Shown in pieces: positions 8,737 through 33,289 of a stretch of DNA of 48,312 nt. Position 1 is the first letter of the stretch, and every line of letters starts with the position of its first letter. The notes beneath the pieces were generated by a model that saw only the letters and a list, made by a program, of their open reading frames with translations, ran no database searches and was not told where the DNA came from. The translations under genes and the position numbers were made by a program. The DNA comes from Omnitrophica bacterium GWA2_41_15 (lineage in GTDB: Bacteria; Omnitrophota; Gorgyraeia; Gorgyraeales; Gorgyraeaceae). Where the stretch lies: NCBI GenBank assembly GCA_919902485.1, contig CAKKRB010000023.1, forward strand, positions 1 through 48,312. The letters are read 5' to 3'.

Positions 8737-11036
8737 TTTGAATAACCGCAAGAGCGGCACACAACGCAGCCTTCTTCGTGCCTTAACGCAGCACCGCAGT
8801 CAGGGCATACGCCAACAACTGTGCCTAACTTGTCTTCTATCATTGTATGAGGCGAATGTTTTTCAAATGCCTCTTCCTGATGGTGCATCTTTCCGTTCCC
8901 AAGCCTTAATTCAAGCACCCTTGCAATGGCATCAGCGCAGGAGAAAATCCTTCCGCTTTTTTCCCATGAAGGAGACGGGCAACGTATGCCTCTTAACTGC
9001 TCCACTATTCTACTATTCTCAACGCCTGAACGTAGTGCAAGCGACACAAGCCTTCCGATTGCCTCAAGCTGGCTTGCAGCGCATCCGCCTGCCTTGCCCA
9101 TCTGGATAAATACTTCAAAAGGCATATTAGAATCATCCACATTAATAGTGATGTAAAGATTGCCGCATCCTGTTGCTACCTTTGTAGTGGTGCCCTTTGT
9201 AACAACAGGCCTTGGCCTTGGGGCAACGCTTTTATTTTCTTTAAGATCTGTAGGGGAGGGTTTTAAACCCTCCCCTACATCCTTCTTTGTATTATTTGAA
9301 TTTATGTTCAGCACCTGTTCCTCCCTTGATTTATCCCTGTAAATGGTTACGCCCTTGCAGCCTAACTTAAAGGCCAGCATATACACCTCGCGCACGTCAT
9401 CCTTTGTGGCCTCGTGAGGGAAATTCACTGTCTTTGAAACAGCATTATCAGTATATTTCTGAAACACCGCCTGCATCCTGATATGCCATAATGGCGCTAT
9501 ATCATGAGAAATGACAAATATCTTTCTGTACTTTTCAGGTACCTCTTCTATATCCTTTATGGAACCTTTTTCTGCAATTGATTCCATAAGCTTCCTTGAA
9601 CAAAAGCCTTCCCTCTTTGCGGTTTCCTCAAAAAGGGCATTGACCTCAATGAGCTTGTCATTATCCATCACATTTCTGTAATAAGACAATGCAAACAAAG
9701 GCTCAATCCCGCTTGAGGCGTCAGAAATGATTGATATGGTTCCCGTGGGAGCAATAGTCGTAAGCGTGGCGTTTCTTAATTTTTTCGCTCCGGTTTCAGC
9801 AAATACGCTCTCATTGAATGAAGGGAACGCCCCTCTTTTTTGCGCCAATTCCTGAGATTTAATCTTTGCTTCATCAGATATAAACTTCATTATTTTTTCG
9901 CCAAGCTGAACCGCCTCTTCGCTATTATAAGGTATCTCGAGTTTTATAAGCATATCTGCCCAGCCCATTACACCAAGGCCTATTTTTCTATTTGTCCTGG
10001 TCATCTTCTCTATCTCAGGCAGAGGGAATTTATTCACGTCAATAACATTGTCAAGAAAATGCACGCTCACATGTACAAGCTTTCTCAGCTTATCCCAATC
10101 TATTTCCTTTTTCTCGTCTCCATATACCACTCTGGAAAGATTTATAGAACCTAAGTTACACGATTCAAATGGAAGCAAAACTTGTTCACCGCAAGGATTG
10201 GTTGACTCATATTTTCCCAGTTTTGGTGTCGGGTTAAATTCGTTCATCTTATCAATAAATATCATTCCTGGTTCGCCATTTTTCCATGAGCATTCAACAA
10301 TCAAATCAAATACCTCTTTTGCCCTGAGCCTTTTAACCTCCTTATTTAAATGCGGATCTATTAGCGAATATTCCTCATCATCTATCACCTTTTTCATAAA
10401 ATCTTCTGTAACTGCAACAGATATGTTAAAATTTGTTATCTCCTTATCGCTCTCCTTACACCTGATAAATTCCAGTATATCAGGGTGTTCTACGCGTAAT
10501 ATCCCCATGTTCGCGCCCCTGCGCGTGCCTCCCTGTTTCACAGCCTGGGTTGCAGCGTTGAATACCTTCATAAAAGAAACAGGGCCGCTTGAAACGCCTC
10601 CTGTAGAGCGAACCACGCTATTTTTAGGCCTGAGCCTTGAAAAGCTAAACCCTGTCCCGCCTCCAGACCGATGAATTAAAGCAGTATTCTTCACTGCTTC
10701 AAAAATAGACTCCATTGAATCTTCTACTGGGATCACAAAGCAGGCCGATAACTGTCCGAGGTCCCTGCCTGCGTTCATAAGCGTGGGGCTATTGGGCATA
10801 AATTCGAAATTTCCCATGATTTTATAAAATCTGTTTTCTGTATCCATCACCTCTGAATCACCTGCGCCATATAATCTGTCAGCCTCTGCTATGTAATGTG
10901 CCACCCTTCTGAACATGCCTTCAGGAGTCTCCATGACTTTCCCATCCTTATCTTTCATGAGATATCTTTTTTCAAGAACCTTAAGGCAATTTTCCGAGAT
11001 GTTTAATTTCTTTTCAGTCTTTGCTTTCAATTCCAT
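8730..11036 (-). CDS. nrdJ: adenosylcobalamin-dependent (class II) ribonucleotide reductase
   Basis: 768 aa with TNPCGEQ active-site loop, ..[26 protein letters not shown].., and a C-terminal zinc ribbon [25 protein letters not shown]. Confidence 0.9.
9250..9278. repeat. GTAGGG-type 29-nt perfect palindrome inside nrdJ
   Basis: GTAGGGGAGGGTTT-T-AAACCCTCCCCTAC. An identical copy lies at 25715..25743. It is translated as [10 protein letters not shown]. Confidence 0.95.
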
Positions 11037-13710: not shown

Positions 13711-13747
13711 TATTTCACAAAACGAGTATGACTCGTTTTGTGAAATA
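13711..13747. repeat. TTCACAAAACGAGT-type palindrome, copy A (intercistronic batC/batD)
   Basis: TATTTCACAAAACGAGT-atg-ACTCGTTTTGTGAAATA has perfect 17-bp arms. It lies 3 nt after the batC stop and 12 nt before the batD ATG, and the spacer contains the GGTGAGG SD. Confidence 0.95.
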
Positions 13748-20628: not shown

Positions 20629-21945
20629 ATGCTGAAACAAATAATTCCGAACAATATTTGCCTTTCCTGCGATGTGTGCTGCAGATTCCTGGATAAAAAT
20701 GCAGCACTTAGGCCTCTTTTTCTGCCGCATGAGATAACTTCTAAAATAAAACCGCACCTGGATAAAACATCCAGTGTAGAATTAAAAGAATTTCAGAATA
20801 TGTACACCTGTCCCTTCTTTAATACAAAAAGCAATAAATGCGCCATATATTCAAAAAGGCCTTTTGACTGCCAGCTTTACCCGTTTGCTGTAATGTTTGA
20901 CGAAAAACATGAAAAGGTTGTCCTTGGCATTGATAAAAAATGCCCATTTGCTATAAATCCTGAAAATACGCGACTAATAAAAGAAAACTTCCATTATCTA
21001 GTTGATCTGCTGGAAAAGAAAGAAAATGCCTCCCTGATAGTTAAAAATCCTTCATTCATAAGTAATTTTCAGGGAGAAGTGATTCAATTCTCCTGCCTGG
21101 ATACGCTTACAAAAATGCTTATTAATAATCCTGAAAAAAATGGATTTAAAAAAATCTCCTTAAAGGATAAACCGGTATTTACACCTTTTCCACCCCGTAG
21201 GTGGCCGAAGGCCACCTACGGGGTGGAAAAGTATCCTGACTCAAGCCAGAATTTTATAAATCTCTTTATATGGAAAGACAAAAACCCTGTTTGGTGGAAG
21301 TATACCCATTCTGATCGGCGATCGGAGCCAGGTTCATTAGAAATCCTATTAGAAACAGACTCCGGATATATAGATTTTAATTCCCTCAAAAAATTTCCTG
21401 ATTATATTTATCTCCAAAAAAACCTGGCTGGCCTTATGGGAAACAGGTATAAACACAAAAGGGCGTGCTGTAATTACTTTTCAAAGAATTACAAGTTTGA
21501 ATATCTAGCGTACAAACAGAACATGAAAAAAGACTGCATGAAACTTTTTTCGAAATGGGCTTCTGAAAGAAAAAAGAAATTTCCAGACCTCTATTACCAC
21601 AAACTCCTGGAGGATAGCTTTTCAGCGCATAAACTCGCTATAGAGAATTATAAAGCCCTTGGCCTGATAGGACGTGTTATAAAAATAAGAGACAGGATCT
21701 GCGCCTATACCTTTGGCTTTCCCCTCTCCCTCATTGAGGGAGAGGGAAGGGTGAGGGAGCCTATGTTCTGCGTGCTGCTGGAAGTCTGTGATTTGAAATT
21801 CAAAGGTATCGCGGAATTTATATTCAGGGAATTCTGCAGGGAATTAAGCAGCTACAAATATATCAACACTATGGACGACTCAGGCCTTGAAAACCTGCGC
21901 ATCTCCAAACTCTCCTATCACCCTGATTATCCCCAGCAGATGTGA
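20629..21945 (+). CDS. fusion protein: YkgJ-type CxxCxxCC cysteine-cluster domain + DUF2156 (lysyl-PG-synthase C-terminal-like) domain
   Basis: N-terminus CLSCDVCCRF...CPFF...CAIY..RPFDCQLYPF is the YkgJ/UPF0153 pattern. The C-terminal half (..NRYKHKRACCNYFSKNYKFEY.., ..INTMDDSGLENLRISKLSYHP) resembles DUF2156. The ORF carries three palindromic inserts. Confidence 0.5.
   Translation: MLKQIIPNNICLSCDVCCRFLDKNAALRPLFLPHEITSKIKPHLDKTSSVELKEFQNMYTCPFFNTKSNKCAIYSKRPFDCQLYPFAVMFDEKHEKVVLGIDKKCPFAINPENTRLIKENFHYLVDLLEKKENASLIVKNPSFISNFQGEVIQFSCLDTLTKMLINNPEKNGFKKISLKDKPVFTPFPPRRWPKATYGVEKYPDSSQNFINLFIWKDKNPVWWKYTHSDRRSEPGSLEILLETDSGYIDFNSLKKFPDYIYLQKNLAGLMGNRYKHKRACCNYFSKNYKFEYLAYKQNMKKDCMKLFSKWASERKKKFPDLYYHKLLEDSFSAHKLAIENYKALGLIGRVIKIRDRICAYTFGFPLSLIEGEGRVREPMFCVLLEVCDLKFKGIAEFIFREFCRELSSYKYINTMDDSGLENLRISKLSYHPDYPQQM
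21186..21230. repeat. 45-nt perfect hairpin inside the CDS
   Basis: TTTTCCACCCCGTAGGTGGCC-gaa-GGCCACCTACGGGGTGGAAAA has 21-bp arms. It spans 15 codons and reads FPPRRWPKATYGVEK. Confidence 0.95.
21722..21759. repeat. CCTCTCCC/GGTGAGGG-type GC-rich palindromic element inside the CDS
   Basis: CCCTCTCCCTCAtTGAGGGAGAGGGAAGGGTGAGGGAG is related to the era insert at 37807..37860. It reads PLSLIEGEGRVRE. Confidence 0.8.
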
Positions 21946-24998: not shown

Positions 24999-25041
24999 CG
25001 TTATTTCACAAAACAAGTCATACTCGTTTTGTGAAATAACG
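24999..25041. repeat. TTCACAAAACGAGT-type palindrome, copy B (intercistronic)
   Basis: CGTTATTTCACAAAACAAGT-cat-ACTCGTTTTGTGAAATAACG has 20-bp arms with one mismatch (25015/25025). It lies 6 nt after the upstream stop and 12 nt before ATG 24986. Confidence 0.95.
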
Positions 25042-25714: not shown

Positions 25715-25743
25715 GTAGGGGAGGGTTTTAAACCCTCCCCTAC
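25715..25743. repeat. GTAGGG-type 29-nt perfect palindrome, intergenic copy
   Basis: Identical to 9250..9278. It ends 9 nt before the ATG at 25753. Confidence 0.95.
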
Positions 25744-28953: not shown

Positions 28954-28996
28954 CGTTAATTCACAAAACGAGTATGACTCGTTTTGTGAATTAACG
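28954..28996. repeat. TTCACAAAACGAGT-type palindrome, copy C (intercistronic nth/ATPase)
   Basis: CGTTAATTCACAAAACGAGT-atg-ACTCGTTTTGTGAATTAACG has perfect 20-bp arms. It contains the nth stop codon (28991..28993) and lies 24 nt before the ATPase ATG. Confidence 0.95.
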
Positions 28997-32552: not shown

Positions 32553-32555
32553 TAA

Positions 32556-32590
32556 ACCTACGCGGTCGGATTTAATCCGACCGCGTAGGT
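32556..32590. terminator. GC-rich perfect hairpin between convergent genes
   Basis: ACCTACGCGGTCGGATT-t-AATCCGACCGCGTAGGT has 17-bp arms. No clear T tract. It contains the CCTACG/CGTAGG core seen in other hairpins of this window. Confidence 0.5.
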
Positions 32591-32599
32591 TGAGATGGT

Positions 32600-33289
32600 C
32601 TAAAAATCCCTGCTTATTCCCAAGGAAACCTCCTCCCCATCAATAAAATCGCCCTCTATATTTAACCTTGTATCTTTCGCAAGCAAATAATCCATGCCCA
32701 CCACAGCTCCCCACATTTTTTCAGATTTAATACGTTTTCTATCGTGCTCATTCACCCACTTTATAAAATCCACTGTTCCATATCTAGTTCCGAGATATGG
32801 AACAAAATTACCCGCATTCTTTGATATCAATACAGACCCCTGCCAGTCATCTATTATCACCCTGTGCTTATCATTCCCGATGTCTGCTGTGGGAGGATGA
32901 ACGCTTATGTGCTGGAATCCAGCAACAGTTTTTATGCCGAATTTCTTATTTTCATATCCCTTTATCCTGAAACCATACCCGCCTGCAAAGCCTGTATTAT
33001 AATTAAGATTACCAGGGTTAGAATTATGCCAGGCCACGTCTCCTACTCCTATTTTTCCGTCAAAGCATATCCAGTTAAACACTCCAAGGGAACATGTCAA
33101 AAAATATCTGTTTCCGCTTGTCCCGCCCTGGTGACCCTTAAGGTTCCTGTCCAATAAAAAATCTCCTTGCAACCCCCATACCCACTGTCTCTCCTTCGGC
33201 ACATGAGTGCCATAACATGGTGCTGCATGCGCAACTCCAGCAGATATTGCAATTAAAGCTATGACCGGAAATAAAAATCTTTTAAGCAA
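32600..33289 (-). CDS. putative outer-membrane beta-barrel protein
   Basis: Signal peptide ..AGVAHA|AP, alternating aromatic/Gly-rich strands, C-terminal ..GISRDF. TTG start with AAGGAG SD 7 nt upstream. Confidence 0.45.
   Translation of the reverse strand: MLKRFLFPVIALIAISAGVAHAAPCYGTHVPKERQWVWGLQGDFLLDRNLKGHQGGTSGNRYFLTCSLGVFNWICFDGKIGVGDVAWHNSNPGNLNYNTGFAGGYGFRIKGYENKKFGIKTVAGFQHISVHPPTADIGNDKHRVIIDDWQGSVLISKNAGNFVPYLGTRYGTVDFIKWVNEHDRKRIKSEKMWGAVVGMDYLLAKDTRLNIEGDFIDGEEVSLGISRDF

Follow-up and report, generated by a model that had tools for sequence, protein, structure and literature searches.

Palindromic GTAG elements in genes and spacers of a Candidatus Omnitrophota genome, a probable double-foot REP family

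Contig CAKKRB010000023.1 of Omnitrophica bacterium GWA2_41_15 (assembly GCA_919902485.1) carries a short palindrome, 29 nt in its standard form, in conserved genes as well as in spacers. We consider it very likely that this palindrome is a double-foot GTAG repetitive extragenic palindromic (REP) element, non-autonomous and linked to the REP-associated tyrosine transposases (RAYT, also TnpA_REP) of subclass 2.4. With this assignment Candidatus Omnitrophota, a PVC-related and uncultured phylum, would join the hosts of the double-foot REP/RAYT system; no new class of mechanism is opened. The whole 48-kb contig (48,312 nt, hereafter the window) was analyzed, and copy counts for the source genome cover the window alone; L-numbers denote loci of other genomes and P-numbers homologous proteins.

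Palindromes in the window and across bacterial genomes

Two 29-nt perfect palindromes are present twice each: GTAGGGGAGGGTTTTAAACCCTCCCCTAC, whose 14-nt arms enclose one central base, starting at 9250 and 25715, and GTAGGGAACGGTTTCAAACCGTTCCCTAC, starting at 35296 and 36599 (Table 1). The degenerate pattern GTAGGGNNNGGTTTNAAACCNNNCCCTAC matched these four positions in the window and nothing in 100 dinucleotide shuffles. A fifth copy, starting at 46066, spans 46 nt: its perfectly matching 23-nt arms meet without a central base, and its core, related to the 29-mers, is extended by 10 bp more of pairing on each side; a similar element lies at positions 324–359 of L126. All five copies start with GTAG and end with CTAC (within the core in the 46-nt copy), the arrangement that defines double-foot elements. 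Five copies in three arm variants thus stand in 48 kb where none is expected, and more variants are found in related Omnitrophota contigs, so that the repeat is dispersed, with subfamilies set by complementary changes in the stem. Translation covers three of the five copies and uses two frames; the other two copies are intergenic.

Folded as DNA, the two 29-mers form hairpins of −13.9 and −13.6 kcal/mol (z = −5.1 and −7.7) with stems of 13–14 bp, and the 46-nt copy, as single-stranded DNA, one of −28.2 kcal/mol (z = −10.3). Size and hairpin stability of the 29-mers fit the definition of GTAG REPs as stable palindromes of 20–40 bp. A preliminary description, made from the letters of this DNA alone, had reported the 29-nt palindrome in nrdJ, with its 14-nt arms and a 10-residue reading on the minus strand, in agreement with the sequence and the open reading frame (ORF); the further copies that it placed at 25715, at 35296 in nadE (read as VGNGLKPFPT) and at 36599 are exactly those that the pattern scan returned in addition to 9250. 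Its extended version of 44 nt at 46067–46110 proved to be the 46-nt palindrome, and its contrast between GC-rich elements and an AT-rich window holds only moderately, at about 52–55% G+C for the elements versus about 40% for the window.

We scanned one genome per GTDB species with GTAGGGNNNNGTTTNAAACNNNNCCCTAC, a pattern that leaves eight arm positions free, and obtained at least 125 copies in at least 117 stretches. Among the matches listed, 104 of 125 copies are perfect palindromes, and the commonest form, GTAGGGGCGGGTTTnAAACCCGCCCCTAC, accounts for 73 of the at least 125 copies. The listed GTDB matches include the arm variants GCGG, GCAG, AACG, ACAG, GAGG and others, always with a matching partner arm. 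Listed carriers belong to Dehalococcoidia, Anaerolineae, Nitrospirota, Thermodesulfobacteriota, Rubrobacter, anammox Planctomycetota, Patescibacteria, Alpha-, Beta- and Gammaproteobacteria and several Omnitrophota. One carrier is a cultured isolate, Lamprocystis purpurea DSM 4197 (L102), and nearly all the others listed are metagenome-assembled genomes (MAGs); in IMG/VR contigs, 33 stretches hold the element. About half of the listed copies fall inside open stretches of at least 150 codons. In-frame elements were verified in two proteins: in a CheA-like kinase (L099) the element occupies the linker that joins CheW to REC, and in an MMPL protein (L027) it separates the two matched stretches. 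On a broader and unlikely reading, the presence of near-identical 29-mers in so many phyla would place the element among the bacterial repeats that have been transferred most widely.

Translated and intergenic copies compared with their orthologues

The window NrdJ is 100% identical to P0001, a protein of a Candidatus Omnitrophota MAG, and reads the element as a 10-residue peptide in the linker between Ribonuc_red_lgC (aa 97–566) and TSCPD (aa 619–710). The peptide or variants of it are present in the orthologues P0002–P0004, P0006, P0014, P0026 and P0072, with decayed forms in P0007, P0019, P0020 and P0031; at the DNA level, L140 holds a decayed copy at the same site. Relatives that are 85–86% identical (P0008–P0013 and others) have no such peptide, their unrelated linker being only 2 codons shorter. 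The preliminary description had named two observations that would speak against it, the same peptide in repeat-free orthologues and a motif not over-represented; what we found is that repeat-free orthologues lack the peptide and that the motif is strongly over-represented. To judge from these comparisons, the nrdJ copy is old and common to several related Omnitrophota lineages. On a rough neighbor-joining tree of NrdJ, alleles with and without the element are interspersed, the tree being shallow and unable to separate repeated loss from recombination; such mixing among close relatives would imply either selection on the in-frame structure or repeated rewriting by the REP/RAYT system. As a separate observation, many close NrdJ orthologues are about 1170–1240 aa long (P0005, P0007, P0014, P0019–P0022, P0024, P0027 and others) and owe this length to an intein that includes a LAGLIDADG domain (Pfam Intein_splicing, LAGLIDADG_3); the window NrdJ has no intein.

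Copies at the nrdJ site were gathered for covariation analysis by protein homology and not by DNA pattern. Across several Omnitrophota lineages the hairpin occurs there with four versions of its arms, of which three are perfect palindromes. The arms are GAGG/CCTC in the window, L122 and L124; GACG/CGTC in L123, L125 and L131; GGCG/CGCC, with one mismatch, in L139; and GCGG/CCGC, imperfect and with another loop, in L126, whose arms differ and whose linker peptide is shared by P0024, a protein grouped among the decayed forms. All four bases are seen at the center. In the alignment 94.4% of cells are paired and 5 of the 14 pairs have changed on both sides, a level reached by none of 500 shuffles, and shifted registers give 39–56% pairing. 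The arms thus stay mutually complementary, which indicates a hairpin and not a protein operator of two half-sites. That the nrdJ copy is a functional DNA or RNA hairpin retained within an essential coding region, beyond a tolerated passenger, is conceivable, although we think it unlikely. As a REP, the copy in the linker of NrdJ, an essential enzyme, would be a well-resolved natural case of fixation, its orthologues showing the element present, absent, decayed or altered in compensating pairs at this one site.

The nadE copy has a narrower distribution. The window NadE is 100% identical to an NCBI MAG protein of Candidatus Omnitrophota, and its VGNGLKPFPT lies where a linker joins CN_hydrolase to NAD_synthase; of 120 orthologues, the window protein alone has this peptide, and the element is absent from L202 and L203. 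The orthologue comparison suggests that the inter-domain linker of NadE is an insertion-tolerant hot spot. Unrelated G+C-rich inserts of 30–45 residues (for example EPPRAKARGSLGGILSGHCLS...) stand at the REP-bearing linker in P0123, P0143, P0147 and P0164. Elsewhere in nadE, the stretch 35576–35599 was considered as a solo half element (arm relic) and rejected, alignment with L202 identifying it as native sequence. A clean 69-nt in-frame insert, PSTSSFDRLRTTLSLSNGSLGTG, occupies 35598–35666 (minus strand, aa 158–180) in the CN_hydrolase domain; it is built on the imperfect palindrome TTCGACAAGCTCAGGgtcgtCCTGAGCCTGTCGAA (35617–35651), which belongs to a different repeat family, and is absent from the 119 other listed orthologues, L202 and L203.

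The remaining two 29-mers border genes. The 25715 copy lies just 3′ of a promoter-like TTGACA-N17-TATACT and 5′ of the symporter start, and L202 has an identical orthologous copy. The 36599 copy abuts the TAG stop of the EamA gene (36628–37047, minus strand) and is also read as SRERFQTVPY, in the C-terminal tail of a convergent ORF (36181–36732, plus strand, 183 aa) that two relatives share; the presence of this copy had been correctly noted beforehand, and it does not lie in plain intergenic DNA. At this site L203 has an element and L202 has none (net +18 nt). The EamA gene and the 183-aa ORF themselves converge with an overlap of about 105 nt (36628–36732), which is kept in L202 and L203.

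Stop codons in the element's own sequence limit how it can be read: TAG closes one frame, on either strand, and in the TTTTAAA variant TAA closes another. The nrdJ and nadE copies share a frame because stop codons occupy the others, and the 36599 copy uses the frame in which the TTTTAAA variant has TAA; the common frame pointed out in the preliminary description is therefore real for these two genes but no special trait. On the evidence of the stop codons, it is best understood as a residue of purifying selection and not as a property of the element or an adaptation.

RAYT genes, family assignment and rival explanations

RAYT-like genes enclose three of the 125 listed copies, those of L115 (Dehalococcoidia), L116 (Bacteroidales) and L014; at a fourth locus, L070, the copy inside the RAYT-like gene has diverged slightly. 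L014 and L070 are Desantisbacteria loci. The genes were found by inspecting ORFs at loci bearing two element copies, a route to the REP–RAYT link that is independent of the published one. In all four the internal copy directly follows the HuH motif MPNH[VF]HGI, the peptides including VGNGFKPFPT and VRNGLKPFPT. Three of 125 listed copies at one position of one small gene family is far above chance. L115, L014 and L070 hold further copies near the RAYT-like gene, and the arm variant within the gene is the one dispersed locally. The proteins match Pfam Y1_Tnp at 31–32 bits, above the cutoff of 23; in NCBIfam, REP_Tyr_transpos matches them best, at 60–72 bits, below the cutoff of 80 and split by the insert. 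A profile search returned at least 8000 homologues, named by their sources ‘RayT’ or ‘REP-associated tyrosine transposase’, and [V..]G.G[FL]KP.PT follows the HuH motif in 94 of the best 120 of these, with split or variant forms in many others.

The RAYT-like proteins carry NH[VF]H, WQ and YIxxNP, close to the motifs given for TnpA_Y1 subclass 2.4 (NH[IFV]H, WQ, YIxNNP; median length 194 aa) in the consulted parts of Quentin et al. 2018 (BMC Genomics 19:475, PMC6006769). The paper associates this subclass with long ‘double foot’ REPs, whose 5′ foot is GT[AG]G and whose 3′ foot is C[TC]AC. Those REPs and the window elements are alike in forming one long double-foot hairpin, in lying in frame in genes and in being patchy across phyla. 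The sections consulted place subclass 2.4 mainly in Cyanobacteria, Bacteroidetes and ‘various phyla’, and mention neither Omnitrophota nor compensatory evolution at one orthologous coding site, such as we see at nrdJ.

The GTAG REPs of Di Nocera et al. 2013 (BMC Genomics 14:522, PMC3733652) share with the window elements a size of 20–40 bp, the GTAG tag and subfamilies set by complementary stem changes. Their tag is unpaired and at one end, whereas in the window it is present at both ends and inside the perfect palindrome. Intragenic members were reported there mostly from Opitutus terrae, ‘VG...’ peptides being listed for that species (for example VGPALAAG) and for others, and REP termini were found to abut stop codons and REPs to lie between convergent genes. 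Neither GTAGGGG nor GTAGGGA occurs as a string in the text-form supplementary files of that paper. REPINs (Bertels and Rainey 2011, PMC3116915) are likewise non-autonomous hairpin repeats tied to a single-copy Y1 transposase, but they consist of two inverted REPs and a spacer, are almost wholly extragenic and are inherited vertically with the RAYT. In the window the repeat consists of one 29-nt hairpin around a single central base, lacks a spacer and has near-identical counterparts in many phyla, and so differs from a REPIN, although split spacer forms do occur inside some RAYT genes.

In the mechanism that we propose, the 5′ GTAG and 3′ CTAC feet flank a G+C-rich stem with an A/T loop, and the element would form a hairpin in single-stranded DNA. 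By homology with the REP/RAYT system of E. coli, a single-copy HuH/Y1 enzyme of subclass 2.4 would recognize the hairpin and its GTAG foot, cut and rejoin it and probably spread it. Copies would land anywhere, and those surviving in genes would be the ones that can be read without a stop, alter the length by whole codons and sit in a linker or loop that tolerates them; stop-free frames would read VGxG[F/L]KPxPT or RxxFxTxPY. Such a survival filter could account for the copies in nrdJ, nadE and the 183-aa ORF. The nrdJ hairpin might be selected, for mobilizability or for an effect of the DNA or RNA, or be repeatedly overwritten from other copies. Presence and absence at the nadE, 36599 and nrdJ sites are consistent with mobility. 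For annotation, VGxG[F/L]KPxPT and RxGFxTxPY peptides in MAG proteins would be translated REPs and not protein motifs, and differences in linker length among NrdJ, NadE and Era proteins of this lineage would stem from such insertions.

Several observations weigh against this assignment. The 48-kb window has no Y1/RAYT or other transposase gene, so that an enzyme link in the source genome is inferred from the family-level association. The RAYT type bearing the 29-mer was seen in none of the Omnitrophota loci examined, and no Omnitrophota member was recognized from cluster names, which are sparse. To our knowledge, transposition of a REP in vivo has been demonstrated for no RAYT. No target-site duplication or flank consensus surrounds the copies, and several close relatives have no copies in 20 kb. 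Alignment of NrdJ with its orthologues revealed no clean 10-codon insertion of the kind anticipated in the preliminary description; against the 85–86% identical orthologues without the peptide the linker is only 2 codons longer, and at the DNA level the 29-mer, whose length is not a multiple of three, stands in place of about 20 nt of unrelated linker. A RAYT-like Y1 gene, the only one seen in close relatives, does lie just 3′ of nrdJ-dcd in L003 (13271–14017) and L128 (11831–12577) (196 aa; REP_Tyr_transpos 60.7 bits, below cutoff), relatives without the nrdJ element, but it is of a different type, with flanking inverted repeats of its own (AGGGACGTGTCAAnnAGGGACA) and no GTAGGG elements, a layout similar to the ‘TIRYT’ of Di Nocera et al. 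With the L003 Y1 protein as query, no RAYT was matched beside elements, because that protein belongs to another subclass.

The behavior of the elements had led the preliminary description to compare them with Rickettsia palindromic elements (RPEs), which would make them independent selfish palindromes specialized for in-frame insertion into genes. The likeness holds for dispersed palindromic repeats in frame in conserved genes at tolerant sites, here the nrdJ linker, the nadE linker and the tail of the 183-aa ORF; it does not extend to the family, for which GTAG REPs are the better match. RPE-1 is longer, and RPE-4 and RPE-6, the intragenic CGTC repeats of R. conorii (Di Nocera et al. 2013, PMC3733652), are of the CGTC class, for which no RAYT association is reported, unlike for GTAG REPs; the window elements, at 29 nt and with GTAG in place of CGTC, are related in sequence to no RPE family and are linked to RAYT-like genes. 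Since two of the five window copies are intergenic and the translated ones use two frames, no special frame is evident either, and an RPE origin seems to us highly improbable; it is refuted outright if belonging to the RPEs demands kinship in sequence or structure. Somewhat less remote, yet still improbable, are host regulatory sites under selection, whether operators of dimeric proteins or RNA terminators, stabilizers or processing hairpins, in place of mobile DNA. The setting of individual copies is suggestive: the 25715 copy, identical in L202, stands between a promoter-like sequence and the symporter start, the 46066 copy stands between two genes of one operon just 5′ of the rubrerythrin ribosome-binding site, and published REPs lie mostly 3′ of ORFs and are probably transcribed. 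Covarying arms without a fixed half-site consensus, however, argue for base pairing over binding of a protein dimer, and no regulatory setting is common to the copies in nrdJ, in nadE, in RAYT genes and in unrelated genes across many phyla. Nor does the window contain a copy with a hairpin-plus-T-run on the transcribed strand (9250, 25715, 36599 and 46066 copies) or a match to Rfam, where the whole window gave no family at the gathering threshold and a permissive scan near 25715 gave generic hairpin noise. Individual copies may all the same have been co-opted by the host.

An assembly or library artefact, or a chance low-complexity feature, could be suspected since nearly all the listed carriers are MAGs, but we give this a negligible probability: shuffles gave no match, the nrdJ copy recurs with variation in independent JGI and ENA assemblies, the isolate L. 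purpurea has the element, and the host reading frames are open throughout. In a full-text literature search, element strings appeared only in unrelated eukaryotic papers, and nothing relevant on Omnitrophota palindromic repeats was found. New are the Omnitrophota host, the cases in NrdJ and NadE and, for one orthologous site, the series of compensatory changes. In-frame REP insertion in genes is already published, including a case from the PVC superphylum, Opitutus terrae (PMC3733652 and the consulted parts of PMC6006769), so that we describe a new host lineage and not a new phenomenon; the earlier statement that no description was known for such a lineage agrees with this.

Other palindromic repeats in the window

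Table 1 Coordinates of palindromes and host genes in the window
Feature	Position	Strand	Basis
nrdJ, class II B12-dependent ribonucleotide reductase, 768 aa	8730..11036	-	Pfam Ribonuc_red_lgN, Ribonuc_red_lgC, TSCPD
Probable double-foot GTAG REP in nrdJ, arm variant GAGG/CCTC	9250..9278		Pattern scan; hairpin kept via compensatory changes
Both-feet palindrome ..CCCC GTAG GTGGCC gaa GGCCAC CTAC GGGG.., 22-nt arms	21185..21231		Palindrome search
29-mer identical to the nrdJ copy, 5′ leader of SNF-family symporter gene (start 25753)	25715..25743		Pattern scan
Feet-reversed palindrome (CCTAC...GTAGG), convergent Lar_N gene / ORF 32600–33289	32553..32593		Palindrome search
nadE, glutamine-dependent NAD+ synthetase, 571 aa (close orthologues 534–543 aa)	34422..36137	-	Pfam domains, orthologue alignment
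Probable double-foot GTAG REP in nadE, arm variant AACG/CGTT	35296..35324		Pattern scan
Second AACG/CGTT copy, EamA stop / tail of convergent ORF	36599..36627		Pattern scan
Both-feet palindrome AACTGC GTAG GACGCC tac GGCGAC CTAC GCAGTT, convergent era / DsbD_2-like gene	38081..38115		Palindrome search
46-nt palindrome, flavoprotein gene (46122–47345, minus strand) / rubrerythrin gene	46066..46111		Core GTAGGGCAGGTTT/AAACCTGCCCTAC

Compared with L202 and L203, the source genome has gained several other palindromic inserts: the 69-nt insert in nadE, the insert in era, the palindrome at 32553 and the A+T-rich family treated below. At 32553 the gain is a clean insert of about 45 nt that both relatives lack. 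The palindrome at 21185 is in frame in ORF 20629–21945, between the CxxCxxCC and LPG_synthase_C domains, and is related to a 60-nt palindrome in L137 (177–236).

In era, at about 37804–37860 (plus strand, aa 227–245), the G+C-rich imperfect palindrome CCCCCTCACCCTCCCCTCTCCCCCAaaTGGGGGAGAGGattaaGGTGAGGGGG lengthens a KH-domain loop by about 15–20 residues (RPPSPSPLPQMGERIKVRG); neither L202 nor the solved Era structures have this insert. At 21720–21748 a similar palindrome, CCCTCTCCCTCA/TGAGGGAGAGGG, lies in frame. An A+T-rich palindrome family (..TTCACAAAACGAGTatgACTCGTTTTGTGAA..) occupies 13711–13747, 24999–25041 and 28954–28996, each time in a short spacer between co-directional genes. It had no shuffle matches and no exact pattern match in the other loci examined; an orthologous copy is present in L203 (7636–7680) and absent in L202, where the flanking genes overlap. 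Finally, an imperfect CGATCG-rich palindrome (TTCCGATCGGCGATCGG...CCGATCGCCGATCGGAA) is found at 45420–45461, inside ORF 44835–45473.

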